Shown piece by piece: positions 4,862 to 64,000 of a DNA stretch of 64,000 nt (the stretch's first letter is position 1; each line of letters begins with the position of its first letter). Position numbers and translations under genes: made by a program. This DNA is from an uncultured Clostridia bacterium (GTDB lineage Bacteria > Bacillota > Clostridia > Christensenellales > CAG-917), in contig CAKQUV010000002.1 of the NCBI GenBank assembly GCA_934277615.1, forward strand, positions 98,855 to 162,854, written 5' to 3'. The notes below the pieces were generated by a model. That model searched no databases and had not been told where the DNA came from. It saw only the letters and a program-made list of their open reading frames with translations.

Positions 4862-5527
4862 ATGAAAAGAAAAATTGTATTGATTTCGGTTGCAATACTC
4901 GTTTTGATATGCGCGCTCGCATGCTTTGTTGCTTGCAACAAAAACAAAAAACAAGAACAGTCCGACAACGTTTCGAGACTCACCGAGGCGTACTATGCGG
5001 GCGAGAGCGATACCTTCGCCGTATCCGTTGAAAAGGGCAGAAGAGAAAAGAATTTTATCGCAGACGGCACTGCAACGGATGTGGCGGATTTTTGCGAGAT
5101 AAATATCCAACCTCTCAAAACCAACGAATACGAAAAAATCACCTATGTTTTGAGCGGACAAGACAGCACGCTTTCGGGTGAGTTGACAGGCGGTACTTTC
5201 GGCGAATTTACGGCATCTATCGCGTTGGATTTTGTTCCCGACAAGATTACGGTGTCGGCAGGCAAGGAGCAAAGCGAGATTGATTTATGCTCTGTTTTAG
5301 ACGGTGCGCTCACCTCGCAAGACGTCATAAATATTGCCAAAAAAGAGTTCAAAGAAAAGATTGACGCAGAGTATTCCGAGGGCAAAGCCGACCGTGAAAT
5401 TTACGTCAAACTCATCACCGCCGACCGCACCAATTATTACTATTACGTGTCTTTCATCGGCGACGGCACGGACTACTGGGCAATGCTTGTAGACATCAAG
5501 ACGGGCGCAATCGTGTCGAAGAAATAA
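4862..5527 (+). CDS. putative lipoprotein, unknown function
   Basis: MKRKIVLISVAILVLICALACFVAC signal peptide with lipobox Cys. The track start at 4856 is TTG; the ATG at 4862 is preferred. No clear SD. Confidence 0.6.
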   Translation: MKRKIVLISVAILVLICALACFVACNKNKKQEQSDNVSRLTEAYYAGESDTFAVSVEKGRREKNFIADGTATDVADFCEINIQPLKTNEYEKITYVLSGQDSTLSGELTGGTFGEFTASIALDFVPDKITVSAGKEQSEIDLCSVLDGALTSQDVINIAKKEFKEKIDAEYSEGKADREIYVKLITADRTNYYYYVSFIGDGTDYWAMLVDIKTGAIVSKK

Positions 5528-5547: not shown

Positions 5548-6240
5548 TTAATTAATAATTAATAATTACGGAAGGCATAGCCTTATCTGAACGCACACTC
5601 ATTCGTAGTCTACTTATAAATGGTATATGCTTATTCGAAGTTGGAGGCGCAAGGCGCCGACCGCACCGAGCGTCGAGCTTGCGTCACACACAAGGCTTTT
5701 AGCCACAATTGTCACTCGTGCCAATTGCTTGCTTTTTGCCTTGGTGCTCCTTCTTTCCTTCACACAAAAGACTGCGCTTTCATCTTATATATTGCGCTTT
5801 CGTTCGCTTGTCTTTTGTGTGTGGAAGCCTTGTGGGTGCAGTACAAGCGACTGCGCAGTGTTGTTGCGTAGCCGGCGCACAAAGCGAAGTGGCATAATGA
5901 GAGGAATGTCCCTATCTATGCGCGTGCCGTAAGGAGCGAAGCGACGGAATAGCGATTGCTACGAAGTCAATCGCGTCGTGTGTCCCCCTGCGGAGCAGTT
6001 CCGTGGGTTCCCTCAAACGAAGTGCGGAGGGGGAACGGAATATGGGCGCGACGCGTTAAGCAACACATCCGGTGAATGTGTTGTAGCCAAAGCGAACGAG
6101 GCGGATTGCGGTGCGCAAACGCCGAAGTCCAAACACCGTGAGGAAGGGGGGGGAAAAAAAGTTGCATTTAATAGTATTTTTAGAAATACCGGCGTGTCCG
6201 GAAAGATGGGGTTATTGCATTTAAGGAGTTACGACGCACT
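5548..6240 (+). repeat. mosaic hairpin-rich intergenic element, copy 1 of 3 (~0.7 kb)
   Basis: Starts with a TTAATTAATAATTAATAATT leader 20 nt after the upstream stop. Long blocks are near-identical to 56936-57535 (same strand) and 33361-33887 (reverse complement). Examples: GCTTATTCGAAGTTGGAGGCGCAAGGCGCC, GCGCGACGCGTTAAGCAACACAT...GAATGTGTTGTAGCCAAAGCGAACGAGGCGGATTGCGGTGCGCAAACGCCGAAGT, CCGGCGTGTCCGGAAAG. Confidence 0.75.
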
Positions 6241-6282: not shown

Positions 6283-6312
6283 AAAAAAAACGCTCCAGAA
6301 AGAGCGTTTTTT
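6283..6312. terminator. bidirectional intrinsic terminator (upstream lipoprotein unit / hup)
   Basis: A8 - CGCTC cagaaa GAGCG - T6 hairpin between convergent genes. Confidence 0.7.
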
Positions 6313-6330: not shown

Positions 6331-6603
6331 TTAGTTGAACAAATCTTTGAAAGCTTTGCCGAATTTGACGACCGGTGCTTTGCTTGCTGCGATCGTGATG
6401 GGTTGCTTGGTGAGAGGATTGAAGCCTTGTCTTTCCGCTTTTTCTTTTACTTCGTAGGAACCGAAGTTTGCGATTGCGACCTTGTCGCCTGCCTTCAATG
6501 CTTCTGCGATGACTGCGGTATATGCGTCAACTGCTGCTGTTGCGTCCTTGATGGAAAGATCGGCTTTTGCTGCCACTGCTTTGATAAATTCTGTTTTGTT
6601 CAT
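6331..6603 (-). CDS. hup: HU family DNA-binding protein
   Basis: 90-aa product MNKTEFIKAVA...GFNPLTKQPITIAASKAPVVKFGKAFKD is a typical HU. AAGGAGG SD precedes the ATG at 6603, so the longer track ORF (to 6681) is rejected. Confidence 0.92.
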   Translation of the reverse strand: MNKTEFIKAVAAKADLSIKDATAAVDAYTAVIAEALKAGDKVAIANFGSYEVKEKAERQGFNPLTKQPITIAASKAPVVKFGKAFKDLFN

Positions 6604-10060: not shown

Positions 10061-10064
10061 ATTA

Positions 10065-10170
10065 GTGATATCGTGCTTCGCACGGTGATATTTGCGCAAA
10101 GCGCAAGTGATATTTTTTGCTTACGCAAAAAGTGATATTGCACCTGCGGTGCAGTTATGGAATATTCCAT
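10065..10170 (-). repeat. hairpin/ATATCAC array A (4 units plus GGAATATTCC palindrome)
   Basis: On the minus strand: ATGGAATATTCCAT, then TGCACCgcaGGTGCA-ATATCAC, TTTTTGCgtaaGCAAAAA-ATATCAC, TTGCGCtttGCGCAA-ATATCAC, CGTGCgaaGCACG-ATATCAC, then the terminator. Same architecture as 20599-20707 and 23741-23863. Confidence 0.8.
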
Positions 10171-10411
10171 TAGTGCACGCAGTGCGCCTAACGTTGCTCG
10201 TAGGCAGGCGGAGCCGTAGTTTATAACTCCACGAAGAATAATTGTGGGCATCAACTGTCTATCCGAGCAACCGCCGAGCCGCCTCAAGGTTGCGAGACCT
10301 TACGCAAAAAGCAAGGCTCCGCTTGCTTTTTTGTAGGACGTTTGCGCCTAAATATGTGTCAAGTTATCTCGTAGAGATAAGTGACACGTGTTTAGCATTC
10401 GGCGCAAGCTG

Positions 10412-12326: not shown

Positions 12327-12417
12327 CGGAAGTAGTAGGGTATTGCGCGTTAAGTGCCGTGCGAACGTGGAGTGTCGGCGGACGAAGGGTTTTCCCGCGG
12401 TGCAATGCTCACTCCAG
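12327..12417 (+). promoter_or_regulatory. THF (tetrahydrofolate) riboswitch, THF-I / folT-motif class
   Basis: GGAAGUAGUAGGGUAUUGCGCGUUAAGUGCCGUGCGAACGUGGAGUGUCGGCGGACGAAGGGUUUUCCCGCGGUGCAAUGCUCACUCC. It shares the recalled hallmark blocks GUAG, GCGUUAAGUG, GUGUCG, ACGAAG, GCGGUG.AAU and a closing CUCC/GGA P1. It sits directly upstream of folC. Confidence 0.75.
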
Positions 12418-12470
12418 ACTTCACATATTACCGAAAGGTTTTTTGCGAGTACTTCCCGAGGAGGTGCTTT

Positions 12471-13790: not shown

Positions 13791-13820
13791 CAAGTAAATA
13801 TAAAAACACAAATAACAAAA

Positions 13821-14060
13821 AATTAATAACAAAAAATTAATAATTAATAATTGCGGGTGGGCGTTGCCCACACCCGAGCAAAAGTCGTCGCTGTGGCAAA
13901 GATAACTCACAAGTTCATTGTCTACTGCCACGCTAGCCTTATTGCTCTGCTACCGCGCAACCGATATACGATCAGTATAGCATGGACAAGAATTCGTACC
14001 ACAGTTCCGCTATATCGCTTGCTTGGTGTATTTGTGGAGTATTCCGCAGCTAGAAAATTT
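13821..14060 (+). repeat. mosaic hairpin modules filling the folC-folE spacer
   Basis: AATTAATAAC..AATTAATAATTAATAATT leader, then GGGTGGGCGTTGCCCACACCC (same hairpin as 56970-56990) and a degenerate GTGGAGTATTCCGC palindrome. Confidence 0.5.
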
Positions 14061-15455: not shown

Positions 15456-16262
15456 ATGGACGTTATTGTTTTGAAAGATTTTGAAGTAACGGCATGCCAC
15501 GGAGTCAATCCCGAAGAGAAGGTAAATCCGCAAAGATTTTTGTTTACGGCAGAGATTTTTACGGATTTTTCAAAGTGCGCCAAAAACGACGATTTGACGC
15601 AAACCATAAGTTATAGCGCCGTAAAAAAGACTTTAAAGTCCTTTTGTGAAAACAACTGCTTTGATTTGATAGAAACTCTTGCCAAGAGAGGCGCGTCGCT
15701 TTTGCTAAAAACCTACCCCCTTGCAAGCGGTGTGAAACTCACCGTCAAAAAGCCCGACGCACCTATGAGCGGTGTTTTCGATTACGTCGCGGTAAGCACG
15801 GAACTTTGGTGGCATGAGGTTTATCTCGCGCTCGGATCAAATATGGGCGATCGCAACGCATACCTCGATTTTGCGATAGACAGATTGAAGGCGGACGACA
15901 ATTTCAAGGACATCGAAGAAAGCGGGAGAATGCAGTCCGCACCATATGGCAACGTCGCAACGGATACCTTTGTCAACAGCGCGGTGAAGTGCAAGACTTT
16001 GTATACTCCTCACGAGTTGCTCGATACGATTATGCAAATAGAAAAGGGCGGAGACCGCGTTCGTAAAGAGAGATGGGGCAACCGCACTCTCGATATCGAT
16101 ATCTTGTTTTACGACGATTTGATAATAGAGGACGACGATTTGTGCGTACCGCACATCGATATGCAAAATCGCGAATTTGTATTGAAACCTCTTTGTGAAT
16201 TGTGCCCCAACAAAGTGCATCCGCTTTTTAATAAACGTATCATTGAACTAAAAACGCACTAA
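15456..16262 (+). CDS. folBK: fused dihydroneopterin aldolase / 6-hydroxymethyl-dihydropterin pyrophosphokinase
   Basis: N-terminal FolB-like domain (CHGVNPEEK...ISYS). C-terminal HPPK domain (LALGSNMGDR, RWGNRTLDIDILFY). The last codons (KTH-stop) lie inside the palindromic element 16250-16375. Confidence 0.9.
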   Translation: MDVIVLKDFEVTACHGVNPEEKVNPQRFLFTAEIFTDFSKCAKNDDLTQTISYSAVKKTLKSFCENNCFDLIETLAKRGASLLLKTYPLASGVKLTVKKPDAPMSGVFDYVAVSTELWWHEVYLALGSNMGDRNAYLDFAIDRLKADDNFKDIEESGRMQSAPYGNVATDTFVNSAVKCKTLYTPHELLDTIMQIEKGGDRVRKERWGNRTLDIDILFYDDLIIEDDDLCVPHIDMQNREFVLKPLCELCPNKVHPLFNKRIIELKTH

Positions 16263-16375
16263 ATCGCGCCTAACTTCGGCAGAGCCGTCCGATTGCCAAC
16301 TCATTTACGTTTAGTAAATTAGGGTTGCCACTCGGACAGCTCTTTCTTGTTATGCATCGATTTATCGCGTTTTTT
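16250..16375 (+). repeat. ~125-bp imperfect palindrome with attC-like geometry, copy 1
   Basis: AAAACGCACTAAATCGC-GCCTAAC(16268-16274)-ttcggc-AGAGCCGTCCG...CATTTACGTTTAGTAAATTAGGG...CGGACAGCTCT-ttctt-GTTATGC(16349-16355)-ATCGATTTATCGCGTTTT. Overlaps the folBK stop codon. Confidence 0.8.
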
Positions 16376-16510
16376 ATTAACTTTTATAAACTTATCTTTT
16401 ACTATAATATGGCATTTTTGCTTCAAATCAATTGCCTATTGCACATATTATCCACATATGTTATCATATCAGTGTAATAAAACACATTGTGTTCAAAAAG
16501 AGGAGAAAAT

Positions 16511-17014
16511 ATGAGGATAATTATTAAGCAAAAGTATTTCACAATCGGTAACAAATTCAAAATCACGGACGAAAACGACGCCGTCGTGTTCTTTGCCGTG
16601 CGCCAGTTTGACAGAATTATGTCAAACGTCGTGTTGTTTGACAAAAACGATACGCCCCTTTTGCGTGTGCAAGCGGAACTCAAAAAGTTTTTTACAACCT
16701 ATTTCGAGGTCAATGACGCTTACGGCGCAAAACTCTTTGCCATTGACGAAAAATTGCCGTTTTTCTGCTTTAAGCGCGCCAAGACCGTTGGCAATATCGA
16801 CGTCAAAATCAAGTGCGGACCAATACATATGAAAGCGTATATTTCGGACGGTAAAGGTTCTTACGACAAAACGCCCGTCGTGCGTGCCCGCAAAAAGATT
16901 TTAAGCATTGCCGACACCTACGTCGTGGATATCGACGATGCGCGAATTCGTTCGGAGTACGGTGCTGTCATTGGCATCTGGTATGATTTAATCAAACATA
17001 ACAAAACGCACTAA
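16511..17014 (+). CDS. LURP-one-related / YxjI-like (tubby C-terminal-like fold) protein
   Basis: MRIIIKQKYFTIGNKFKITDENDAVVFFAV... pattern of the PF04525-type family. AGGAGA SD before ATG 16511. Ends in KTH-stop encoded by repeat copy 2. Confidence 0.6.
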   Translation: MRIIIKQKYFTIGNKFKITDENDAVVFFAVRQFDRIMSNVVLFDKNDTPLLRVQAELKKFFTTYFEVNDAYGAKLFAIDEKLPFFCFKRAKTVGNIDVKIKCGPIHMKAYISDGKGSYDKTPVVRARKKILSIADTYVVDIDDARIRSEYGAVIGIWYDLIKHNKTH

Positions 17015-17125
17015 ATTGCGCCTAACTGCGTCAAGTCAGTCCGCCCGTCAACTCATTTACGATTAGTAAATTAGGGTTGCCGTTCGGACAGCCTTTCCTT
17101 GTTATGCATCGATTTATTGTGTTTT
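17003..17125 (+). repeat. ~125-bp imperfect palindrome with attC-like geometry, copy 2
   Basis: AAAACGCACTAAATTGC-GCCTAAC(17020-17026)...CATTTACGATTAGTAAATTAGGGTTGCCGTTCGGACAGCC...GTTATGC(17101-17107)-ATCGATTTATTGTGTTTT. Same strand and same 88-nt AAC-to-GTT box span as copy 1. Confidence 0.8.
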
Positions 17126-17186
17126 GCGTAAACTAAATTCAAATTCTACACAAAACAAAAAAACGATTACAATAAATTCAAATAAA

Positions 17187-19393: not shown

Positions 19394-20572
19394 ATGGATA
19401 TCGAGACTTTGAGCGACAAACTGCAATACGTCGCGCTCTATCTTGCCGTGGCAATCGTGGCGGCGTTTATTGTGGTCGGGCTTCTCGTTTGGTTCAAGAA
19501 ACGCGACAAATTCGCCGATTTCAAAAAATACGCCGTCGGCATCGTAACGGGCTTTGCCGTAACAATGGTGGTCGTGTTTGCTTACGTCAAGTTTCAATGC
19601 AATCTGGGCGATATGCAAGCCAAACTCTTTTACCCCATTCTCGCAACGCTCATAACTGTGGTCGCAGGCGCAATCGCAATGCTCGTAAGCTCGCTTTTCA
19701 GCAACAAAGCGACAAAGATTTCCTTTATCGTAACGGCATTAGCGGTGCTTGGATGTTTTATCGCCACAATGGTGCTTATGGCGCAATACTACGGCGATAT
19801 TGCGGAGGATTATCCGTCCGCAAACCTCGTTGGCATGATTGTATCCGCAGTCGTGTTTATGGTGATAATGGTCGTTATGTGGTTTGTAGGGGACAAGCGC
19901 AAGATGAGCGACACTCGCTCTATCGTTTATGGCGCAATCTCAATCGCACTTTCCTTCGCGCTCTCGTACGCACGCATTTTCAAACTTCCTCAAGGCGGCT
20001 CCGTAACGTTCGCAAGCCTCCTTCCGCTCATGGTGTATTGCTGCATGTTCGGCACGAGAAGAGGTCTTATCGTATGCACGATATACGGCGTTTTACAAGC
20101 GCTACAAGACCCGTACATAATTCACCCGATGCAATTCTTGCTCGATTATCCTCTTGCATTCGGTCTTATCGGCGTAAGCGGCATATTTATGGAGAAGGGC
20201 GTATTCAAGGATAAAAAAGTCGTTGCATTCCTGCTCGGCGGCGTTATCGCAGTCGTATTGAGATACGCATGCCACGTATGCTCCGGCGTCTTTGCGTTTG
20301 CCGACTATGCCGACCTCGATAAGTACAACACCGCAATCGCATACAGCATGGCGTACAACTCCTTCGCTTTTGTGGATATGCTCATCGCTCTCGTCGCAGG
20401 CAGCGTCTTGTTTGCTTCCAAATCCTTTACGGCGCTTATGCAAAAGTCAAGCGACTTGAACAAGGCGGCGGAAGTCGCACCCTTGCAAGAGGTTGAGGAT
20501 GACGAACCCGTTGACGAAATCGACCGTCAAATCATCGAAAGCCAAAAAGCAGACGATGAAAGTCAAAATTAA
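19394..20572 (+). CDS. thiT: ECF-type thiamine transporter S-component ThiT fused to an extra N-terminal multi-TM region
   Basis: The C-terminal ~200 aa match the ThiT/YuaJ pattern (ISIALSFALSYARIFKLPQGGSVTFASLLPLM...). About 190 extra N-terminal residues carry ~5 TM helices. Acidic C-tail. GGAGGA SD. TPP riboswitch lies upstream. Confidence 0.8.
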   Translation: MDIETLSDKLQYVALYLAVAIVAAFIVVGLLVWFKKRDKFADFKKYAVGIVTGFAVTMVVVFAYVKFQCNLGDMQAKLFYPILATLITVVAGAIAMLVSSLFSNKATKISFIVTALAVLGCFIATMVLMAQYYGDIAEDYPSANLVGMIVSAVVFMVIMVVMWFVGDKRKMSDTRSIVYGAISIALSFALSYARIFKLPQGGSVTFASLLPLMVYCCMFGTRRGLIVCTIYGVLQALQDPYIIHPMQFLLDYPLAFGLIGVSGIFMEKGVFKDKKVVAFLLGGVIAVVLRYACHVCSGVFAFADYADLDKYNTAIAYSMAYNSFAFVDMLIALVAGSVLFASKSFTALMQKSSDLNKAAEVAPLQEVEDDEPVDEIDRQIIESQKADDESQN

Positions 20573-20598
20573 TAGTTAATAATTATTAATTAATAATT

Positions 20599-20707
20599 GT
20601 GGAATATTCCACAACTTGCGCCTATGGCGCAAATATCACTTTTTGCGTAAGCAAAAAATATCACTTGTGCGTAGCACAAATATCACTGCACGAAGTGCAA
20701 TATCACT
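20599..20707 (+). repeat. hairpin/ATATCAC array B (4 units plus GGAATATTCC palindrome)
   Basis: GTGGAATATTCCAC, then TTGCGCCtatGGCGCAA-ATATCAC(20633), TTTTGCgtaaGCAAAA-ATATCAC(20658), TGTGCgtaGCACA-ATATCAC(20680), GCACgaaGTGC-ATATCAC(20700). Lies between the thiT stop (plus an AT-rich leader) and the terminator. Confidence 0.85.
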
Positions 20708-22508: not shown

Positions 22509-23444
22509 ATGGAAGTCAGGATACCTTCGGGTTTCAAAATAGGTCATTACGACGACGAATACACGGGCGTAACCGTCGTTCTTTCAGAGAGCGGCGCAAC
22601 GGGCGGCGTTGACTGTCGCGGCGGCGCCCCCGGCACGAGAGAAACCGACCTTTTGCACAATGAAAAAATGATGCAAAAAGTCAACGCAATCGTGCTTTCG
22701 GGAGGCTCGGCATACGGGCTTGCCTCCACGTGCGGAGTTATGGAATACTTGCGTCAAAAGGGCGTTGGATACAAGAGCCTCGGCAAAATCGTGCCTATCG
22801 TTTGCGGTGCGGTTTTATACGACCTCAATCAAAAGGAATATCACTATCCAACCGCAGAATACGGACTTAAAGCCTGCGAAAATGCTTCAAAAACCACCGT
22901 TTTTGGCAATATCGGCGCAGGTAAGGGCGCAACCGTCGGCAAAATCCGCGGCATCAAAAACGCATGCAAGAGCGGTATCGGCGCGGCAACGGAAAAGGTG
23001 CTGGGCGTTACCGTAACGGCAATCGTCGCAGTCAACGCAATGGGCGATATCGTCGATGATGAGGGAAAAATCATCGCAGGCGCAAAAGGCAAAAACGGAG
23101 AGTTTATCGACACCGAAAAATGCCTTGCCGAGGGCGACGTGCTCAAACTTGCGTTTGGCACCAACACCACGATAGGATGTATTCTCACCGACGCAAAACT
23201 AGACAAGGTGGACGTCAATAGGCTTGCAAGCATTTCCCACAACGGACTTGCAAGAGCAATCCGTCCCGTGCATACCATGTACGACGGCGATACAATGTTC
23301 TGCCTTGCAAGCGGCAAACGTCCTGTGGCAAATCTTGCAGTGCTTCAATCGGCAGTCGTCCGCGCCACACAGCGCGCCATTCAAAACGCCGTTGCCGCAA
23401 CAACAAATTATGATGTGATATACGATGATGACGAAGAGGAGTAA
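22509..23444 (+). CDS. P1 (S58, DmpA/BapA-like) family aminopeptidase
   Basis: GVTVVL...GGVDCRGGAPGTRETDLL, SGGSAYGL and the self-processing GTNTTIG motif. Confidence 0.8.
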   Translation: MEVRIPSGFKIGHYDDEYTGVTVVLSESGATGGVDCRGGAPGTRETDLLHNEKMMQKVNAIVLSGGSAYGLASTCGVMEYLRQKGVGYKSLGKIVPIVCGAVLYDLNQKEYHYPTAEYGLKACENASKTTVFGNIGAGKGATVGKIRGIKNACKSGIGAATEKVLGVTVTAIVAVNAMGDIVDDEGKIIAGAKGKNGEFIDTEKCLAEGDVLKLAFGTNTTIGCILTDAKLDKVDVNRLASISHNGLARAIRPVHTMYDGDTMFCLASGKRPVANLAVLQSAVVRATQRAIQNAVAATTNYDVIYDDDEEE

Positions 23445-23740
23445 AAATTAATAATTGATGGTGGAACACCCACATCCGAACGAAAATAAATATGGAATAT
23501 TCCATATGTCATTCCGCCAATGTCGAGTGAGAAAACTTGCTTGCAAGGGTTTCCGAACGACGATATTTTTGAAGTGATTGAAATTGCATTTATGCAAAAA
23601 AAGCCATAGGCTTGCGCTATTAGCGCACAATCACTGTGGGAACGAAGTGACCGTGGGAATCTAGCGTAGCGAAATGCGCCTGCGGCTAGATTGCCACGCT
23701 TGCGCTCGCAATGACGAAAGGGTGGGATACCCACACCCGA
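23445..23740 (+). repeat. mosaic hairpin modules (AT-rich leader, GTGG..CCAC hairpins, GGAATATTCC palindrome)
   Basis: AAATTAATAATT directly after the stop, then GGTGGAACACCCAC, ATATGGAATATTCCATAT (23490-23507), AAGCCataGGCTT, GCGCtattaGCGC and GGGTGGGATACCCACACCC. The same module types occur at 5548, 13821, 20569 and 56936. Confidence 0.55.
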
Positions 23741-23863
23741 ATGGAATAATCCACAACTGCGGCAACGCCGCAATATCACTTTTTGCGAAAGCAAAAAATA
23801 TCACTTGCGCAAAGCGCAAATATCACTGCGCCCACGGCGCAATATCACTCGCACGAAGTGCGA
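23741..23863 (+). repeat. hairpin/ATATCAC array C (5 hairpins, 4 linkers)
   Basis: ATGGAATAATCCAC, then TGCGGCaacGCCGCA-ATATCAC(23773), TTTTGCgaaaGCAAAA-ATATCAC(23798), TTGCGCaaaGCGCAA-ATATCAC(23820), TGCGCCcacGGCGCA-ATATCAC(23842), TCGCACgaaGTGCGA. Ends 9 nt before the ATG of the radical SAM gene. Confidence 0.85.
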
Positions 23864-29393: not shown

Positions 29394-31247
29394 ATGGCAC
29401 AAGAAAGAATTAAAACTCCAAAATCCAAAGGCGGATGGAAGAAGATGGCAGGGTGCATCGGCGAATACAAGGTGCCCACGATTTTCACATCCGTTTTGGT
29501 GGCGTGCGAGGTGTTGTTCGAGGTCTTTATACCGCTCATAATGGCGCAAATCGTCAACGTCGGCATGGACACAACGATAGACTCGTTCACCTTTACGATT
29601 GAACTTGGCAAAATCAAATGGATTTGGTTTACGCTTGCGGACAGAAAGATGTTCATCCTGGCGTGCGGCGGACTTATGATTGCAATGGCGCTCATATCTC
29701 TTTTGTTCGGCGTAACGTCGGGCAGACTTGCCGCAAAAGCGTCCACGGGTTTTGCAAAGAACTTGCGCAAAAAGCTCTTTTACAAAATTGAGAATTTCTC
29801 CTTTGCAAACCTTGACCGTTTCAACACCGCAAGCCTCGTTACAAGACTTACGACGGACGTAACCAACATACAGATGTCCTATCAGGTTGTATTCCGTATG
29901 CTCGTTCGCTCTCCGGTTATGCTCATACTCGCCATCTGCATGGCGGTATCCATAAGCCCGGATTTGTCCGTAATATTCGCAGTCGCTTTGCCGATACTTC
30001 TTATCGGTATCATCATCGGCGTAAAAGTCGTTTTCCCGAGATTTGAGAAAATGCTTCACAAGTACGACGATATGAACGAGTCCACGCAAGAAAACCTTAT
30101 CGGTATCCGCGCGGTCAAAGCGTTCGTAAGAGAGGACAACGAGATTGCCAAATTCAAAAAAGTCAGTTCCACCGTTCAAAAATTGCAGTTGTCGGCAGAG
30201 CGCATTATCGTCATCATGTTCCCGTTTATGCAACTTCTCGTCTACGGATGCTTGATTTGCGTGGCGTGGTTCGGCGGCAACGATATCATTATCGGCAAAA
30301 TGCATCTTGGCGATTTCACGGCGTTTTTGAGCTACATAATGCAGATTCTGATGTCGCTTATGATGGTCGCAATGGGCTTTATGACCATCGTTATGTCGCG
30401 CGCTTCGCTTGACCGTATCGTCGAAGTTTTGGACGAAAAGATCGACATCGAGGACGGCGAGAACGCTCAGGACATCCAAGTCGCAGACGGCAGTATAGAC
30501 TTTGACAACGTGGATTTCTCTTATTCCAAATCGCCGGACGTTCTCAATCTCGAGAATATCGACCTTCACATAAAGAGCGGCGAAACGATAGGAATCATTG
30601 GCGGCACGGGTTCGGCAAAAACCACGCTCGTGCAACTTATACCTCGTCTTTACGACACGCTTGACGGCGAAGTAAAGGTTGGCGGAGTCAACGTCAAGGA
30701 TTACAAACTTGACAATTTGCGCTCGGCAATCGGCATGGTGTTGCAAAAGAACGTGCTTTTCAGCGGCACAATCAAGCAAAACTTGCTTTGGGGCAACCCG
30801 AACGCAACGGATGAGGAAGTTGAGCACGCAGCCAAAGCGGCGCAAGCGCACGATTTTATCATGTCTTTCCCCGACGGCTATCAGACGGAACTCGGACAGG
30901 GCGGCGTCAACGTATCAGGCGGACAAAAGCAACGTCTTTGTATTGCGCGCGCGCTTTTGAAACATCCCAAAATTATGATTTTGGACGACTCTACTTCAGC
31001 AGTCGATACCGCAACCGACGCAAAGATAAGAAGCGGTCTTAAGAGCGAATTCGGCGATACCACCGTTATTATAATCGCGCAGCGTATATCTTCCGTTGAG
31101 AACGCGGACAGAATTATTGTCATGAACGACGGCAAGATTGACGCAATCGGCACGCATGAAGAACTTATCGCAACCAACAATATCTATCAAGACGTATATA
31201 ATTCCCAAAAGAAGGGATCGGACGAGGAGGTGAGCGTTAATGCCTAA
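29394..31247 (+). CDS. ABC exporter, fused permease/ATPase (type I exporter half-transporter A)
   Basis: Six-TM domain plus an NBD with GGTGSAKTT Walker A, SGGQKQR signature and ILDDSTSAVD Walker B. Alternative GTG start at 29388. Confidence 0.9.
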   Translation: MAQERIKTPKSKGGWKKMAGCIGEYKVPTIFTSVLVACEVLFEVFIPLIMAQIVNVGMDTTIDSFTFTIELGKIKWIWFTLADRKMFILACGGLMIAMALISLLFGVTSGRLAAKASTGFAKNLRKKLFYKIENFSFANLDRFNTASLVTRLTTDVTNIQMSYQVVFRMLVRSPVMLILAICMAVSISPDLSVIFAVALPILLIGIIIGVKVVFPRFEKMLHKYDDMNESTQENLIGIRAVKAFVREDNEIAKFKKVSSTVQKLQLSAERIIVIMFPFMQLLVYGCLICVAWFGGNDIIIGKMHLGDFTAFLSYIMQILMSLMMVAMGFMTIVMSRASLDRIVEVLDEKIDIEDGENAQDIQVADGSIDFDNVDFSYSKSPDVLNLENIDLHIKSGETIGIIGGTGSAKTTLVQLIPRLYDTLDGEVKVGGVNVKDYKLDNLRSAIGMVLQKNVLFSGTIKQNLLWGNPNATDEEVEHAAKAAQAHDFIMSFPDGYQTELGQGGVNVSGGQKQRLCIARALLKHPKIMILDDSTSAVDTATDAKIRSGLKSEFGDTTVIIIAQRISSVENADRIIVMNDGKIDAIGTHEELIATNNIYQDVYNSQKKGSDEEVSVNA

Positions 31248-33210
31248 AACAAAGAAAAACACGGCAAATCCCGCAATGCACGGCAAGAATTTCCGCGCCC
31301 AAAGCCCGTCCAAGACTTTCAAGCGAATACTAACTTATCTCAAGCCCTACACGGGTATGTTGATCGGCGCGTTGATTTGCATGATCGCAAACGTCGTCTG
31401 CAACATCGCAGGCACGTTTATGCTCGGCTCCGTCATTGTCAACAACTACATTCTTCCGCTTGCGTATAAGTTTAATAACTTGGTGACAACCGACCCCGAC
31501 ATCATTGCAAGGTCTGCGGAAATCACCATTCAGAACTTCGGCGGCATAGTCGGCGTTATGGCGGCAATGTACGTCGCCGGCGCAAGCTTGCACTATGTAT
31601 ATAACTACATCATTGTAAAAGTTACTACTCAAGTGCTTCAAAACGTCCGCGACGAGATGTTTGAAAAGATGGAAAAATTGCCCATTCGCTACTTCGACAC
31701 TCACACGCACGGCGACATAATGAGCCTTTACACCAACGACACGGACACTTTGCGCGAGTTGCTCTCCAACGGCATCCCCAACCTCATATCCAACGTTATG
31801 ACGATAGTGGGTATGTTCATCGCAATGATGGCAACGTCGTGGGTGCTTGCGCTTTGCTCAGTCGCAATGATAGTCGTTATGCTGTTTATAATGAAGTACA
31901 TCGGCGGCAAGAGCGGCAAGTATTTTGTCGGACAACAACGCCAGACGGGCGCAATCAACGGCTTTATAGAAGAACATATCGACGGTATGAAGGTTGTCAA
32001 AGTGTTCTGCCACGAGGACGCGGAAAAAGAAGATTTCGACGGTTTCAACGAACGTCTTTTCCACGATTCCGACAAAGCGCACAAATACGCAAATATCTTG
32101 TTCCCGATTATGGGCAACTTGTCCTACGTATCTTATGCAATCACCGCAATCGTCGGCACGATTTTGGCAATAAGCGGTACGGGCGCGGTGGCGCTTTCCT
32201 GGGGCGGTTTGGTATCCTTCATGCAGTTCTCTCGTCAATTCAGCAATCCGCTTGCGCAAATCGCTCAACAAATGAACGGCGTTCTCATGGCGCTTGCAGG
32301 AGCGGAACGTATCTTCGAGCTTATCGACCAAGAACCCGAAAAAGACGAAGGCTACGTTACTTTGGTCAACGCAAAAGAGGACGAGAACGGCAACATTGTC
32401 GAAACTCCCGAATATACGGGTATGTGGGCTTGGAAACACTTCCACAAAGCGGAAGGCACAACCACCTACGTCAAGTGGCAAGGTAAAGTGCAGTTTGATG
32501 ACGTAACGTTTGGATACGTGCCTGAAAAGACCGTGCTCAAACACGTTACCATGTACGCATTGCCCGGACAAAAAGTCGCGCTTGTCGGCTCAACAGGCGC
32601 AGGCAAAACAACCATAACCAACCTTATCAACCGCTTCTACGACGTGGAGGACGGCAAGATAAGATACGACGATATCAACATCACCAAAATCAACAAGAAC
32701 GATTTGCGCCGCTCCATGGCAATGGTTTTGCAGGATACGCACCTTTTCACGGGTACCGTTGCGGACAATATCCGCTTTGGCAAACTTGACGCAACTGACG
32801 AGGAAGTTGAAAACGCCGCAAAACTCGCCAATGCCGACTATTTCATCCGCCACTTGCCCGAGGGCTATAACACAATGCTCACAGGCGACGGCGAGAATTT
32901 GTCGCAAGGTCAACGTCAGCTCCTCGCAATCGCGCGCGCGGCAATTGCCAATCCGCCCGTGCTTATTTTGGACGAGGCAACCAGCTCCATCGACACTCGC
33001 ACCGAGAAACTCATCGAGCAAGGCATGGACAAACTCATGCAAGGTCGCACCGTCTTTGTCATCGCCCATAGACTTTCCACCGTCCGCAACGCCGACGTTA
33101 TCTGCGTTCTCGAACACGGTGAAATCATCGAACGCGGCAATCACGAGCAGTTAATCGCTAAACGCGGTAAGTACTATCAACTCTACACCGGCGCTTTCGA
33201 ACTTGAATAA
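31240..33210 (+). CDS. ABC exporter, fused permease/ATPase (half-transporter B)
   Basis: GSTGAGKTT, SQGQRQL and ILDEATSSID motifs. 8-nt overlap with the upstream half-transporter gene suggests a heterodimer. The stop codon lies inside palindromic element copy 3. Confidence 0.9.
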   Translation: MPKTKKNTANPAMHGKNFRAQSPSKTFKRILTYLKPYTGMLIGALICMIANVVCNIAGTFMLGSVIVNNYILPLAYKFNNLVTTDPDIIARSAEITIQNFGGIVGVMAAMYVAGASLHYVYNYIIVKVTTQVLQNVRDEMFEKMEKLPIRYFDTHTHGDIMSLYTNDTDTLRELLSNGIPNLISNVMTIVGMFIAMMATSWVLALCSVAMIVVMLFIMKYIGGKSGKYFVGQQRQTGAINGFIEEHIDGMKVVKVFCHEDAEKEDFDGFNERLFHDSDKAHKYANILFPIMGNLSYVSYAITAIVGTILAISGTGAVALSWGGLVSFMQFSRQFSNPLAQIAQQMNGVLMALAGAERIFELIDQEPEKDEGYVTLVNAKEDENGNIVETPEYTGMWAWKHFHKAEGTTTYVKWQGKVQFDDVTFGYVPEKTVLKHVTMYALPGQKVALVGSTGAGKTTITNLINRFYDVEDGKIRYDDINITKINKNDLRRSMAMVLQDTHLFTGTVADNIRFGKLDATDEEVENAAKLANADYFIRHLPEGYNTMLTGDGENLSQGQRQLLAIARAAIANPPVLILDEATSSIDTRTEKLIEQGMDKLMQGRTVFVIAHRLSTVRNADVICVLEHGEIIERGNHEQLIAKRGKYYQLYTGAFELE

Positions 33211-33331
33211 GCCCCACAACGGCAAATAACTGCGTCAGAGCCGTCCGCCCGTCAACTCATTTACGCTTAGTAAATTAGGGTTGCCGTTCGGACGGCTTTT
33301 CCGCGCTCTTCATCTCAATATTGGCTTATTC
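33205..33331 (+). repeat. ~125-bp imperfect palindrome with attC-like geometry, copy 3 (right box decayed)
   Basis: GAATAAGCC...AAATAAC(33224-33230)-tgcgtc-AGAGCCGTCCGCCCGTCAACTCATTTACGCTTAGTAAATTAGGGTTGCCGTTCGGACGGCT...GCTCTTC(33305-33311)...GGCTTATTC. The outer arms GAATAAGCC/GGCTTATTC pair. Confidence 0.75.
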
Positions 33332-33360
33332 GCGCTCGAAAGATAAAGTATTGTCATAAC

Positions 33361-33887
33361 TCCTCAAAATACAATAACCCCCTCTCTCCGGACACGCCGG
33401 CATTTCTCGAAACAACTATTAAATGCAATTTTCCCTTTCCTCAAGGTGTTTGGACTTCGGCGTTTGCGCACCGCAATCCGCCTCGTTCGCTTTGGCTACG
33501 ACACATTCACCGAATGTGTCGCTTAACGCGTCGCGCCCATATTCCGTTCCCCCTCTGCGCTTTGCTTGAGGGAACCCACGACGACCGCGCAGCGGGGGAC
33601 AACTCGACGCGATTGACTTCGTAACAATCGCTATTCCGTCGCTACGCTCCTTACGGTACTCGCATAGAAAAGTATCGTTCTCTTGTTATGCCACTTCGCC
33701 TGCGTGGCGGCTGCGCAACAAAATGCCACGCATTCTCGTACTATTCATCAAGCTCGACGCTCGGTGCGGTCGGCGCCTTGCGCCTCCAACTTCGAATAAG
33801 CACATTCCGTTAATAAGTACTCTCCGAATGAGTGTGCGTTTGGATAAGGCTACACCTTCCACAATTATTAATTATTAATTATTAATT
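33361..33887 (-). repeat. mosaic hairpin-rich intergenic element, copy 2 of 3 (inverted, lacks the ~180-nt internal module)
   Basis: The reverse complement aligns with 5548-6240 and 56936-57535, including the AT-rich leader (33863-33887). The module GCGTCACACACAAGGC...GTACAAGCGACTGCGC is missing. Confidence 0.75.
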
Positions 33888-33943: not shown

Positions 33944-34396
33944 ATGAAAGTTCGCATTTACATGACAAAACTTCATCAACAATGGACGTATGGCGAGAGG
34001 GTAGATCTTGTGCCTTATCTTGACGGTGAGGATGATGAAATTTTTGAATATGCCGTGCCTGATAGCGGCTTTGCAATCATTCTCAAAAACGGATATACTT
34101 ACGACGTTGTGGACACCGAGCAAGACGCGATTGACAAGATAGGCTACATCTATCGCAATTACGAAGTTGCGCAAAACAGCTGCGACAAGTGTTACATCTC
34201 CCGAGATAACACAAAAAAACGCTACAAAACCCCTGCAGAGGCGCAAACAGATGGCGAGTACGATTATGTCTACGTTCCGCAAGGGATGTATTTCCTCACC
34301 AAATTCGGGAAAATCCTTGCAATCGGCAAAACCGAGGATGAAATGACGGAAAAGATGTACGAGCATTACCGTGCCAAATACACTTATTTGTGTTAA
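33944..34396 (+). CDS. hypothetical protein (150 aa)
   Basis: Clean ORF with acidic/aromatic-rich composition and no recognisable motif. Confidence 0.5.
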   Translation: MKVRIYMTKLHQQWTYGERVDLVPYLDGEDDEIFEYAVPDSGFAIILKNGYTYDVVDTEQDAIDKIGYIYRNYEVAQNSCDKCYISRDNTKKRYKTPAEAQTDGEYDYVYVPQGMYFLTKFGKILAIGKTEDEMTEKMYEHYRAKYTYLC

Positions 34397-42952: not shown

Positions 42953-42981
42953 TTGATTTTTTCTTATAAACTATGTATAAT
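42953..42981 (+). promoter_or_regulatory. promoter of the acidic-protein genes
   Basis: TTGATT (42953-42958), 17-nt spacer, TATAAT (42976-42981). The ATG of the track ORF (42973) overlaps the -10 box. Confidence 0.5.
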
Positions 42982-43011
42982 CTATTAGATACTAAATCGC
43001 GGAGGAATATT

Positions 43012-44679
43012 GTGGAATTTTTTGAAAAGGCATTCGCTTGGCTTGCAGACGTATCGTCCAAATTGCCTAAAATAGATTTTCAAATATTTTTCATCGTCGT
43101 AGCGGCGGTGCTTTTCGGGTTGGGTATCGTATTTGCGTTTACGTATCTCGGCTCAAAGAGTTTCAAACTTATCAAGGCTAGCAAGAAAATTCAAAAATAC
43201 CTCGAAGGCGTCGACGCCGTCGATGACGACAACGTGAGCGATTTTACAGCGCATTGTTTCTCTGCAAAAGCGCCTCAAGCGTTGCGCGACAGTTGGGTGC
43301 AATACCTCGGCGTGCGCTTTGGATATCCCAGCGATATCGTCAGCGACAAGAACGTCTATGACAAGACGGTCAAAAAGAACAAGGACTATCGCGCGGGCAT
43401 CTACATTTGCGTATCGCTTATTTTGCTTGCGGTGTTTGCGTTTTGGGGATACGGCACTCTCGATAAGACAGCCATCGGCGCAGTGCATTTCGTGAGTCTT
43501 GTGATTATCGGATTGATGTATCTTTTCCTCATCCTCATCAATCGTGCTCAGAACAAGCGTTGCCTCGAAGCTTTTGACGCAATGCAAGAAGACCTTGACG
43601 CAAAGGTGAATTTGCAAGTCGAGAAAAACTATGCCACGGATTCCTCTCCGCTTTCCGAACTTGCGGGTATGGTGGAAGAGATTATCGCACGCAACACGTC
43701 CAAGGCAATCGACATCGACGAAGAGCCCGAAGAGGTGGCGGAGCCCACTCCCATCGAGGCTTTGATAGAACAAGAAGAGAAAGGCGAGAGCGTTGAGGAA
43801 GAAACTTCTGTCGACGAGGCAGACGAGCCGGTTTCCGAGGATAAGGAAGAAGAGTCTGTGGATGAAGAAGCGGAACCCACGGAAGAAACTTCCGTAGAAG
43901 AAGCCGAAGAGGTTGAAGAAACCCCCGTTGACGCTGTCGAAGAGAATACGGAAGAGGTTGCGGACGAGGAAACGGACGAAGTTGTCGAAACCGAGCCTGT
44001 CGAAGAAGCCGTAAAAGAAACCTCGGAGGAAACCGAAGAAGAAAAGGCTGACGACGAAAACGTTGAAGAAACCATAGAGGAAAGCACCGAAGAGGAAGGA
44101 CTCCAAGAAGCGCAAGAAGACGCTGCGGAAGAGAACGCCGAAGAACAACCTCTCAAAGAAGAACAAGAGGATACTCTTGACGAGGCAGAGGCTCAAGAGG
44201 AAGTTGAAGCCGAGGAAATCGAGGAAGAAGTCCGAGAGGATGAAAACTCGGTCGAAACGAAAGAAGAGCCTATTGAAGAAATCGCAGACGATGACGTTCA
44301 GGAGGACGTAACAGACGAGTCCGAAGAGGTTGAAGAACAATCCGAAGAAGAAGTAGCCGACGAAGGCGACGCAGAAGCCGAAGAAGTCGAGGACGATTCA
44401 CAAGAGGACAACTCAGAAGAGAAAGCCGAAGAGGAGCCCGAGGTCGTTTACGTCGTAGACGGCGAGGATGAGGACGAAGAAGTTGTCAAACCTGCAAAAC
44501 TTGTCAAACTTCCCAATCTCGTTGATTATATGCTGACAAAGAATATGCCGAAGGCTATGAAGATTCAAATCGCAGGAATGCTCATCGGCACGTACAAGAA
44601 GTTTGAAAACAGCAAGGAAGACCGCAAAATCGTTGTGCAATGTCTGACGAAAGTTATGCGCGACTTGCAAGCAAACTGA
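43012..44679 (+). CDS. membrane-anchored, extremely acidic protein with conserved C-terminal domain (paralog 1)
   Basis: GTG 43012 lies 5 nt after GGAGGA. Three N-terminal TM helices, ~260 aa of E/D-rich low complexity, then a ~75-aa C-terminal domain shared with 44759-45511. Confidence 0.65.
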   Translation: MEFFEKAFAWLADVSSKLPKIDFQIFFIVVAAVLFGLGIVFAFTYLGSKSFKLIKASKKIQKYLEGVDAVDDDNVSDFTAHCFSAKAPQALRDSWVQYLGVRFGYPSDIVSDKNVYDKTVKKNKDYRAGIYICVSLILLAVFAFWGYGTLDKTAIGAVHFVSLVIIGLMYLFLILINRAQNKRCLEAFDAMQEDLDAKVNLQVEKNYATDSSPLSELAGMVEEIIARNTSKAIDIDEEPEEVAEPTPIEALIEQEEKGESVEEETSVDEADEPVSEDKEEESVDEEAEPTEETSVEEAEEVEETPVDAVEENTEEVADEETDEVVETEPVEEAVKETSEETEEEKADDENVEETIEESTEEEGLQEAQEDAAEENAEEQPLKEEQEDTLDEAEAQEEVEAEEIEEEVREDENSVETKEEPIEEIADDDVQEDVTDESEEVEEQSEEEVADEGDAEAEEVEDDSQEDNSEEKAEEEPEVVYVVDGEDEDEEVVKPAKLVKLPNLVDYMLTKNMPKAMKIQIAGMLIGTYKKFENSKEDRKIVVQCLTKVMRDLQAN

Positions 44680-49638: not shown

Positions 49639-49697
49639 ATACCCGAAAGGCGTTGATTGAATGATTGCTACGGCTATTAACGCCGAATTTTGCAAAA

Positions 49698-50471
49698 ATG
49701 GAAAACGAAAATAAATACATTTTTATCTCGCACTCGCACGCCGATTTGGCAAAAGTGAGGCTGGTGCGCAATACGTTTGAGAATAGGGGATATGAGCCGA
49801 TTTTGTTTTATCTCCATTCTTTATCTGACGAAAACGAAATAACGGATTTGATAAAGCGTGAAATCGACGCGCGTCTTTGGTTTTGTCTGTGCGATTCGCA
49901 GAACGCAAGAAAAAGCCGTTGGGTGCAAAGCGAATTGAATTACGTGAAAGAACAGGGCAAAAGAACGCTTGCGACAATAGATCTTGACAAGATTGGTGCG
50001 CTTGGGGTTGCCGAACAATGCAGAATAGTAAATCTGACAGTCGACAGCTTTTCTCGTGCGAATACCGTGTTTTTGTCGTATATGAAAAACTCGGCGGTTG
50101 AGGCTAAAAAGATAGGAATGACTTTGGAAGAATTTGGATTTGACGTGCCGCTGTTGCATATGCATAATCAGCTATTTCAATGTTTTGAAGATAACGTAAT
50201 TGAAAGCAATATTGAGAAATGCGACTACTTTTTTATTGTGATAGGGCAAAATTGCGCAATCAACCATTGGGTTCTTAACGAGTGGTATTTGGCAAGGCAA
50301 TTAGGAAAAATTATCATTCCGATTTTTCTTGACAAAGAAGCACTTTTAAACACGCCCGGAGAGTTGTTGGAGTGGTCATATGTATTGTGGAATTTTGACA
50401 ATCCGATCGAATCGGTAAAAGCGTTGATAAACGTAATACCGATCGGCGATACGCGCCCCGTAAACGATTAA
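49698..50471 (+). CDS. tandem TIR-domain protein (two TIR_2-like domains, no other domain)
   Basis: Domain 1: YIFISHSHADL...WFCLCDSQNARKSRWVQSELNYV. Domain 2: VFLSYMKNS...YFFIVIGQNCAINHWVLNEWYLARQLGKIIIPIFLD. Both keep the (F/L)(I/L)S(H/Y) strand and the W-x-x-x-E motif. First ATG is 49698 (track start 49665 is TTG). No SD. AT-richer than its neighbours. Confidence 0.75.
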   Translation: MENENKYIFISHSHADLAKVRLVRNTFENRGYEPILFYLHSLSDENEITDLIKREIDARLWFCLCDSQNARKSRWVQSELNYVKEQGKRTLATIDLDKIGALGVAEQCRIVNLTVDSFSRANTVFLSYMKNSAVEAKKIGMTLEEFGFDVPLLHMHNQLFQCFEDNVIESNIEKCDYFFIVIGQNCAINHWVLNEWYLARQLGKIIIPIFLDKEALLNTPGELLEWSYVLWNFDNPIESVKALINVIPIGDTRPVND

Positions 50472-56935: not shown

Positions 56936-57535
56936 AAATTAATAATTAATAATTAATAATTAATAATTGCAAGTGGGCGTTGCCCACACCTAAATGAAGC
57001 TTATTCGAGGCGTTCTTATTAACGGAATGTGCTTATTCGAAGTTCGAGTCGCAAGGCGCCGAGCGAATAAGCGCCGAGCTTGCGTCACACACAAGGCTTT
57101 TAGCCACAATTGTCACTTGTGCCAATTGCTTGCTTTTTGCCTTGGTGCTCCTTCTTTCCTTCACACAAAAGACTGCGCTTTCATCTTATATAACCCACTA
57201 TCGTTCGCTTGTCTTTTGTATGTGGAAGCCTTGTGGGTGCAGTACAAGCGACTGCGCCGTGTTGTTGCCTAGCTGGCGCACAAAGCGCAGTGGCATAACA
57301 AGGGGGCGATACCTATTTATGCGAGTGCCGTTGTCTCCCCCGCGAGCGACGAATAATATTGTAGAGAATTATCCCTAACCGAGTGGTCGGGCGCGACGCG
57401 TTAAGCAACACATTCGGTGAATGTGTTGTAGCCAAAGCGAACGAGGCGGATTGCGGTGCGCAAACGCCGAAGTGGACATGCCGGCGTGTCCGGAAAGAGG
57501 GGGCACATTGCATTAAAGAAGTTACGATGCACCCG
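56936..57535 (+). repeat. mosaic hairpin-rich intergenic element, copy 3 of 3 (~0.6 kb)
   Basis: (AATTAATAATT)n leader right after the stop, then GTGGGCGTTGCCCAC, followed by modules ~95% identical to 5628-5897 and 6046-6130. Confidence 0.75.
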
Positions 57536-57544
57536 AATTACAAA

Positions 57545-57576
57545 CAAAAAAAGCCCGTTAGATACGGGCTTTTTTG
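57545..57576. terminator. bidirectional intrinsic terminator
   Basis: A7-AGCCCGT taga TACGGGCT-TTTTT. Confidence 0.8.
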
Positions 57577-63456: not shown

Positions 63457-63801
63457 ATGCACGAGTTAGGAGTGGTTTTTCACATTGCGGACATAGTGAG
63501 CGACGTCGCTCGCAAGAACAACGCGTCCAAAATTGCAAAGGTCGTCATGCAAATCGGCGAGGTTTCCACCGTCGTCAACGACCAACTCATCGATTGCTGG
63601 AATTGGAACGCCAACCGCACCGTCCTTCTCAAAGGTTGTAAAATAGAAGTGGAAACCATTCCTGCCGTCACCTATTGCGAGGATTGCAAAAAAGAGTATC
63701 CCACCGTTCAATACGGCAAAATTTGCCCCTACTGTGGCAGTGAGCATACTTATCTTTTGCGAGGGAACGAAGTCCAAATCAAAGAAATCCTCGTGGAATA
63801 A
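63457..63801 (+). CDS. hypA: HypA-type nickel insertion / zinc-finger metallochaperone
   Basis: MHELGV N-terminus (MHE nickel site) and a CEDC...CPYC zinc site. 114 aa. The stop lies inside palindromic element copy 4. Confidence 0.85.
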   Translation: MHELGVVFHIADIVSDVARKNNASKIAKVVMQIGEVSTVVNDQLIDCWNWNANRTVLLKGCKIEVETIPAVTYCEDCKKEYPTVQYGKICPYCGSEHTYLLRGNEVQIKEILVE

Positions 63802-63923
63802 GGGCTCAAATAGCGAATAACTTCGGCAGAGCCGTCCGCCCGTCAACTCATTTACGCTTAGTAAATTAGGGTTGCCGTTCGGACGGCTCTTTCTTGTTCT
63901 TCATCTATTTGAGCTCTTATTCT
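63797..63923 (+). repeat. ~125-bp imperfect palindrome with attC-like geometry, copy 4
   Basis: GAATAAGGGCTCAAATAGC-GAATAAC(63815-63821)-ttcggc-AGAGCCGTCCGCCCGTCAACTCATTTACGCTTAGTAAATTAGGGTTGCCGTTCGGACGGCTCT-ttctt-GTTCTTC(63896-63902)-ATCTATTTGAGCTCTTATTC. Confidence 0.8.
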
Positions 63924-64000
63924 ATTGCGCATTAGTCAAAGCTTCTTGTGCATCAACTCACGTACGTACTAGTACGTTAGGGTTGCTGCCCAAGGGGCTT

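Follow-up and report, generated by a model that had tools for sequence, protein, structure and literature searches.

An undescribed family of modular non-coding hairpin repeats in a human-gut Christensenellales bacterium, with a nested 85-nt structured element that also occurs on its own

BOX elements of Streptococcus pneumoniae have the layout boxA-boxB(n)-boxC, and they are compared by description here. The REP sequences and BIMEs of enterobacteria, which are mobilised by RAYT transposases, and the REPINs are further systems of short interspersed repeats (PMC2817692, PMC3116915). Here, we analysed 64,000 nt (the window) of contig CAKQUV010000002.1 (positions 98,855 to 162,854; assembly GCA_934277615.1) from an uncultured Clostridia bacterium of the order Christensenellales, in which a preliminary description had reported three copies of a modular element at 5548–6240 (+), 33361–33887 (−) and 56936–57535 (+), hereafter c1, c2 and c3. 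All three were present and share blocks of 82–99% identity, and they are true members of an undescribed non-coding, modular hairpin-repeat family of a human-gut Christensenellales bacterium. Our main reading, to which we assign a probability of roughly 55%, is that they are non-autonomous interspersed mosaic repeats like BIME and BOX elements, each with a nested, site-specific structured mini-element (module F).

Like BIMEs and REP sequences, the window elements are interspersed, extragenic and non-coding, typically occupy the gap from a stop codon to a terminator, have no protein of their own and are mosaics of hairpin motifs that vary between strains. Unlike REP units, which alternate, all their modules share one strand and follow a fixed order; the modules are also longer, the core is a multi-helix motif whose unpaired strands are long and invariant, and a RAYT gene was found neither in the window nor near 231 loci that match the core. 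BOX and ERIC/Correia-type elements, again by description, are likewise modular, collinear and non-coding, with optional or variable internal modules, transcription together with neighbouring genes and a stable predicted RNA structure; however, they have no sequence relationship to the window elements, which are without terminal inverted repeats and whose module F is an insertion element with a distribution of its own.

Each copy is a collinear chain that starts with a leader of TTAATAA repeats, a run with stop codons in every frame, and continues through modules A to H. Pairwise blocks and three-way alignment gave c1 the full architecture (leader 5548–5570, A 5571–5612, B 5613–5681, C 5682–5857, D 5858–5930, E 5931–6043, F 6044–6128, G 6129–6189 and H 6190–6240), while blocks, alignment and a covariance model resolved c2 as leader-A-B-D-E-F-G-H, with module C missing and F at 33454–33538, and c3 as leader-A-B-C-D-e-F-H, with F at 57389–57473. 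The blocks common to c1 and c2 were 6002–6149 with 33433–33580 (148 nt, 94%), 5549–5681 with 33749–33881 (133 nt, 90%) and 5884–5999 with 33584–33699 (116 nt, 82%), and those common to c1 and c3 were 5669–5930 with 57070–57331 (262 nt, 92%) and module F itself (85 nt, 99%), which is 98% identical between c2 and c3. The covariance model of the core matched exactly c1–c3 in the window, at 72–75 bits (72.1 bits for c1), with everything else at or below 10 bits. A fourth copy, c4, lies about 50 nt past the window end, after hypA (L002:18070–18551), which brings the count to four copies in ~67 kb.

Three-way alignment reproduced each of the mosaic details that had been read from the three copies, namely a module of ~180 nt, a differing segment and differing tails: a block of ~176 nt (5682–5857) is found in c1 and c3 and is missing from c2, the stretch between GTGGCATAA and GGGCGCGACGCG in c3 is unlike that of c1 and c2, and a tail block running from CCAAACACC to AGAAAT is missing from c3. 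When the modules of c1 were mapped on all fetched loci, the order A-B-C-D-E/e-F-G-H was constant in ~70 related copies; the optional members were C, D, E/e and G, and F as well, and in some copies F, or a portion of E, was missing at precise boundaries. Since the order is always the same, the element is a collinear chain with optional members, and its modules are not freely shuffled. A leader with only an A-type hairpin follows a stop codon at 13818–13874 (+) and is 91% identical to the start of c3, and (TTAATAA)n runs with a short hairpin also follow stop codons at 20565–20599 and 23442–23482; at these three places the run leads into different repeats. The window holds a second intergenic repeat family as well, consisting of arrays of 4–5 short hairpins, each followed by AATATCAC, at 10064–10171 (−), 20632–20707 (+) and 23740–23831 (+).

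The hairpins of modules B, D and F have kept their pairing via compensatory changes. In module D the paired arms occur as GCGCC/GGCGC, GTGGC/GCCAC and GTGAT/ATCAC, and one pair in module B occurs as G-C, U-A and C-G variants. G·U pairs occur on the written strand only, where they are dominant or invariant; as positions that are mostly G·U there show, the written strand is the one that folds, and the strand originally assigned to the element is correct. The fold of the whole element was ordinary on both strands (z-scores of −1.4 and −1.9). The element is non-coding, modular and dense in hairpins, as first described. Terminal inverted repeats were absent (alignment of the first 70 nt with the reverse-complemented last 70 nt scored 7–9, cf. 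shuffle means of 6.4–8.0), as were target-site duplications (the longest word common to the flanks of c1–c3 was 4–5 nt), and the element is therefore not a classical MITE.

The preliminary description had also proposed CTTATTCG/CGAATAAG as a word marking module borders and a possible recombination site. CTTATTCG occurs six times in the window against 2.9 expected, with six or more occurrences in 12 of 100 shuffles, and all six lie inside repeat copies. The word is not enriched and sits inside conserved module B instead of at the borders, and its role as a recombination site was dropped for want of enrichment. A family of imperfect, REPIN-like palindromes of ~110–130 nt (D1) is found at 16251–16382, 17003–17134, 33207–33338 and 63798–63929; the third of these adjoins the 3' end of c2, another D1 copy abuts c4, and two D1 palindromes bracket a small LOR-domain gene.

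The flanks of the copies are as had been claimed. c1 lies between a stop codon at 5527 and a bidirectional intrinsic terminator at 6285–6312 that it has in common with the convergent HU gene (6331–6603, −), c3 lies between a stop codon at 56935 and a bidirectional intrinsic terminator at 57547–57575, and c2 is inverted, on the minus strand between plus-strand genes at 31240–33210 and 33944–34396. No sigma-70-type promoter was found upstream of c1, c2 or c3. The description of c1 and c3 as very long structured 3' UTRs agrees with their position and is plausible, transcription being predicted here from the gene layout. Across related copies, a terminator lay within 150 nt downstream in 11 of 46, cf. 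4 of 46 controls, a weaker adjacency than was first apparent.

The genes of the window are ordinary housekeeping genes, among them ClpB, AddAB, PPDK, ABC transporters and a folate operon preceded by a THF riboswitch. Clusters at ≥90% identity that contain window proteins bear the names Christensenellales bacterium and Christensenella sp., and one of these proteins is also encoded on the 1.65-Mb chromosome of a relative (CP091723.1). A spirochaete (Treponema) host, which the Bmp-type transporter and the Hadza gut source had suggested, was discarded in view of these clusters. The riboswitch (12329–12422, +, 62 bits) lies upstream of genes for a Mur-ligase-like FolC, GTP cyclohydrolase I, DHPS and FolB-HPPK. 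A lone TIR-domain (ThsB-like) gene at 49665–50471 (+) lies between the PPDK gene and a phosphoribosyltransferase gene, and the gene at 42973–44679 (+) encodes a 568-aa protein with no Pfam match and long Glu-rich repeats of the GAAGAA type.

Comparison between strains and species demonstrated insertion polymorphism of the element. At the orthologous site of c1 in a sister species with identical gene order, 10 of 10 places had a 98–108-nt gap with the bidirectional terminator only. Eight contigs with an identical permease flanking the c3 site carried the element forward (three), inverted together with its leader (one) or not at all (four); the gap in same-permease contigs ranged from 255 to 885 nt, and sister strains had 0–2 copies of the D1 palindrome (~110 nt) at this site. 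c2 and c4 lie exactly where the gene order shared by two strains breaks, strain L244 parts from the window inside the 3' tail of c2, and short-read contigs (L004, L005) terminate at the element. In principle, loss instead of gain could also explain why one species has the element and another lacks it. A lack of further copies had been named as a point against mobility; further copies exist, and the element behaves as movable.

The 85-nt block at 6044–6128 (+) of c1, module F, is an independent small structured element, widespread in gut Clostridia and absent from Rfam, which the preliminary description had missed. In c1 it reads GGGCGCGACGCGUUAAGC, hairpin, GUAGCCAAAGCG, hairpin, as assigned from the covariance model and covariation, and nearly all real matches have the layout GGGCGCGACGCGUUAAGC, hairpin, G(U/C)AGCCAAAGCG, second hairpin. 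F was sought by its opening 18 bases in species-representative genomes and in contigs of public metagenomes, an exact 18-mer anchor that hides variation in that strand. Among the matches listed, F occurred as a free-standing unit in many metagenome contigs and Clostridia genomes; the genomes were mostly metagenome-assembled and labelled Christensenellales, Oscillospiraceae, Ruminococcaceae or plain Clostridia, and one assembly, CAVANK01, had at least nine copies among the matches listed. The CAVANK01 contigs (L138, L141, L165, L171, L172, L176, L180 and L181) carry window-type modules alongside those nine or more F matches, under the label Butyrivibrio crossotus, which looks doubtful. In 32 diverse copies, pairing in the F core was kept in 98.9% of cells, cf. 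~36% in slid controls, and 11 of 23 pairs changed on both sides, a level reached in none of 500 shuffles. In variant copies, one pair joining the 18-nt strand to the 11-nt strand has changed from G-C to A-U, a further compensatory change. The two hairpins, P2 and P3, are unlike in sequence and length.

The junction of F is GGG. This word directly precedes F in host elements of the E type and the e type, as judged against F-minus alleles, and in four tRNA T-loops. Host elements that carry F and those that lack it are identical but for the insert. In one pair of alleles the difference is plain, the F-minus allele reading ...AATAGGGG followed at once by AAACAC and the F-plus allele reading ...AATATGGG, then the insert CGCGACGCG...GAAGUCC, then AAACAC; in a second pair, ...GAGTGGTGGG followed at once by AGAAAT stands against ...GAGTGGTCGGG, insert and GGACAT. 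Alleles resembling precise excision of F exist alongside occupied ones. At tRNA-Ser, tRNA-Arg, tRNA-Lys and tRNA-Ala, the 16 bases before the core are the reverse complement of the tRNA 3' end and end in GGG, with the core in place of the T-loop AGTC or ATTC. In locus L103 the tRNA sequence continues after the insert, the core interrupting a duplicated tRNA 3' half within the T-loop, and at tRNA-Asn the F unit is followed by a 29-nt copy of that tRNA's 3' end. Overall, repeats of tRNA 3' ends beside F units measured 13–29 nt at tRNA-Ser, Arg, Lys, Ala and Asn, and the inserts, free of any integrase, measured ~170–300 nt. Rickettsia palindromic elements are, by description, similar in being hairpin inserts of ~100 nt without terminal inverted repeats or target duplication that may land within RNA genes and other repeats; they belong to another phylum and have no sequence relationship to module F, which differs in its strict GGG junction and conserved two-hairpin core.

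In free F units a closing helix, P1, of 10–14 bp adjoins the core, and its sequence is wholly different between copies. A self-versus-cross test of P1 gave a modest overall difference (8.9 vs 8.0 bp), with single cases of 12–14 bp that are striking. The genes next to F loci were unrelated and lay in either orientation. In a subgroup at tRNA-Ser, F units are in tandem, and a TTGACT-17-TTTAAT promoter reads into each; this is a good promoter and would fit a small RNA gene in that subgroup of free units.

Several individual loci showed further features. The free F unit at L017:4168–4361 (−) has a copy of a 17-nt direct repeat, CTTCCTTACAGGCTCCC, on either side; the left copy is paired with the unit's 3' end, and after it all comes an intact CUCCCCUGAAAGGGGAG hairpin. 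Locus L102:2380–3080 (−) holds four tandem tRNA-Ser 3'-end fragments, TGGCGGAGAGTTAGGG, with inserts of ~170–200 nt between them, one of which is an F unit preceded by a TGGCGGAGAGTTAGGG copy. Tandem units of ~180 nt divergent from tRNA-Ser were seen at L231:7379–7740 and in L052, L091, L144 and L183; in each such unit a promoter-like box is joined to a hairpin resembling an anticodon arm, then to the F core and to 25 nt of antisense sequence copied from the 5' end of the tRNA. A group II intron (D1–D4 models, 128 bits) at L099:5980–6306 (+) lies ~5.7 kb from a free F unit, with no link seen between the two.

Searches for known families and enzymes bore out two further points of the preliminary description, that the element matches no known RNA family and that no transposase, reverse transcriptase or intron lies among the window genes. 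At the gathering threshold, Rfam 15 found only the THF riboswitch in the window, and at E ≤ 10 it returned only terminator-like noise on c1 and nothing on the F unit of L017; on 20 free-F loci the motif was unmatched. The OLE, ROOL, GOLLD, HEARO and self-cleaving ribozyme models of Rfam 15 gave no match to the element at or near the gathering score. The window genes included no transposase, integrase or reverse transcriptase and none of the Y1/HUH (RAYT) type, and no protein family, Y1/HUH or TnpA/TnpB genes included, recurred near F matches in the 231 loci (within 3 kb). When 928 ORFs near the matches were clustered, the sole groups were ABC ATPases and spurious ORFs that overlie the element; no protein is encoded alongside it. 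A 145-aa 'gene' of a public assembly, at L001:18089–18526 (−), lies wholly inside the fourth element copy and falls in a cluster of such spurious ORFs translated from the repeat. A phage or plasmid origin was considered and rejected, as BLAST gave no matches and a viral collection gave only two contigs, one of them identical to metagenome locus L036. Sequence-string and keyword searches of the literature found no description of the element.

A true large structured ncRNA gene family, with F as its conserved core, variable peripheral domains as in OLE, ROOL and GOLLD, and several gene copies, would account for the fixed module order, for the covariation of several helices with strand-specific G·U pairs, for the strong conservation of the core across Clostridia and for the promoter-like boxes at some free F units. 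The element also resembles OLE, ROOL, GOLLD and HEARO RNAs in its size (0.5–0.7 kb), its conserved core with optional domains and its covariation, but differs in having no Rfam match, a dispensable core and a presence and orientation that vary between strains. We consider this reading unlikely, because F, the most conserved block, is missing from some otherwise intact copies and because the c3 site is forward, inverted or empty among contigs with an identical permease; moreover, the c1 site is empty in a sister species, the three window copies have no upstream sigma-70-type promoter and the whole-element fold is not unusual. It is also rather improbable, in our judgement, that the element is a repeat at the DNA level only, in which the hairpins matter solely because a tyrosine transposase (REP-associated or of the IS200/IS605 type) acts on them as single-stranded DNA, and in which the RNA has no role. 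F adjoins a fixed short word without target duplication and has excision-like alleles, one-strand hairpins also tolerate G·T in single-stranded DNA, and long REPIN-like palindromes occupy the same gaps, all of which would fit such a repeat; in these respects F is comparable to the IS200/IS605-derived PATEs, which likewise lie directly 3' of a fixed short word without target duplication and have hairpins near their ends and alleles resembling precise excision. F differs from PATEs in that its left and right hairpins are unrelated to each other, no TnpA or TnpB gene was found nearby, and HEARO and the other Rfam models are unmatched. Against the DNA-only reading stand the unlike core hairpins and the finding that no Y1/HUH gene is present in the window or recurrent near the 231 loci; in addition, module orientation does not alternate as it does for the REP units of BIMEs, and the promoter in one subgroup of free units suggests that transcription is relevant.

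Two other explanations fared worse. Integron-like non-coding cassettes with attC-type palindromes, or remnants of tRNA-targeting integrase elements, would be in keeping with the long imperfect palindromes that adjoin c2 and c4 and with the 13–29-nt tRNA 3'-end copies that flank several free F units, but are very improbable: no integrase gene was found in the window or recurrently near the loci, the tRNA-linked inserts are only ~170–300 nt long, and the position of the core of L103 within the T-loop of a duplicated tRNA 3' half is unusual for integration sites. The palindromes, which had been likened to attC sites, end in CGCTATTGAGCG...CTCAATATCGCG without paired RYYYAAC/GTTRRRY ends, and with no integrase in the window that likeness does not hold. 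A cis-regulatory RNA (riboswitch or attenuator) acting on adjacent genes is the least credible explanation that we weighed; although a structured, RNA-like motif does occur in untranslated regions, the neighbouring genes are unrelated, in either orientation and with no consistent downstream family, and the window copies lie downstream, not upstream, of genes. Some loci have a close gene start on the opposite strand, which made a riboswitch worth considering, but those genes too are unrelated, and the folded strand, as judged by the G·U pairs, is the opposite one.

Under the mosaic-repeat reading that we favour, copies are fixed-order chains of strand-specific hairpin modules beginning with the TTAATAA run, and they occupy harmless gaps, typically from stop codon to terminator, where they would be co-transcribed with the upstream gene. 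Each copy carries one F unit (~85–110 nt) that lands directly after GGG without duplicating its target, and gain, loss, inversion and remodelling between strains would be brought about by machinery supplied in trans together with recombination between copies. The leading guess for the putative mobilising enzyme is a hairpin-recognising, single-strand HUH transposase of the RAYT or IS200 type; it would agree with the fixed junction, with the unduplicated target and with the strand specificity, but not with the two unlike hairpins. The invariant unpaired strands, the multi-helix layout and the conservation across Clostridia lineages exceed what is seen in simple REP-like repeats and point to an RNA function or a specific partner, and the units with a promoter likewise point to an RNA function; judged from sequence, an RNA function of F is possible but unproven, and an RNA role of the element of its own would likewise be conjectural. 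Tentatively, and with less confidence than in the mosaic-repeat reading, F may form a class of its own in gut Clostridia, as a new kind of small structured mobile element or of small RNA, of ~85–150 nt, with a near-invariant pair of 18-nt and 11-nt strands and two covarying hairpins; it would be protein-free and insert GGG-specifically into tRNA T-loops and other repeats, perhaps working via an undescribed RNA-level or single-strand mechanism, in which case the window elements would be repeats colonised by F.

Among gut bacteria, Christensenellales and Oscillospirales are prominent and have been little studied. A repeat family that occupies the space from stop codon to terminator, marks gene-order breaks between strains and interrupts short-read assemblies affects both genome reconstruction and strain comparison, and it also yields spurious gene calls, such as the 145-aa one at L001:18089–18526. 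The conserved core, which covaries strongly and has neither an Rfam family nor a partner protein, is a concrete candidate for a new structured RNA or a new protein-free insertion mechanism, and the F-plus and F-minus alleles make its nature directly testable.
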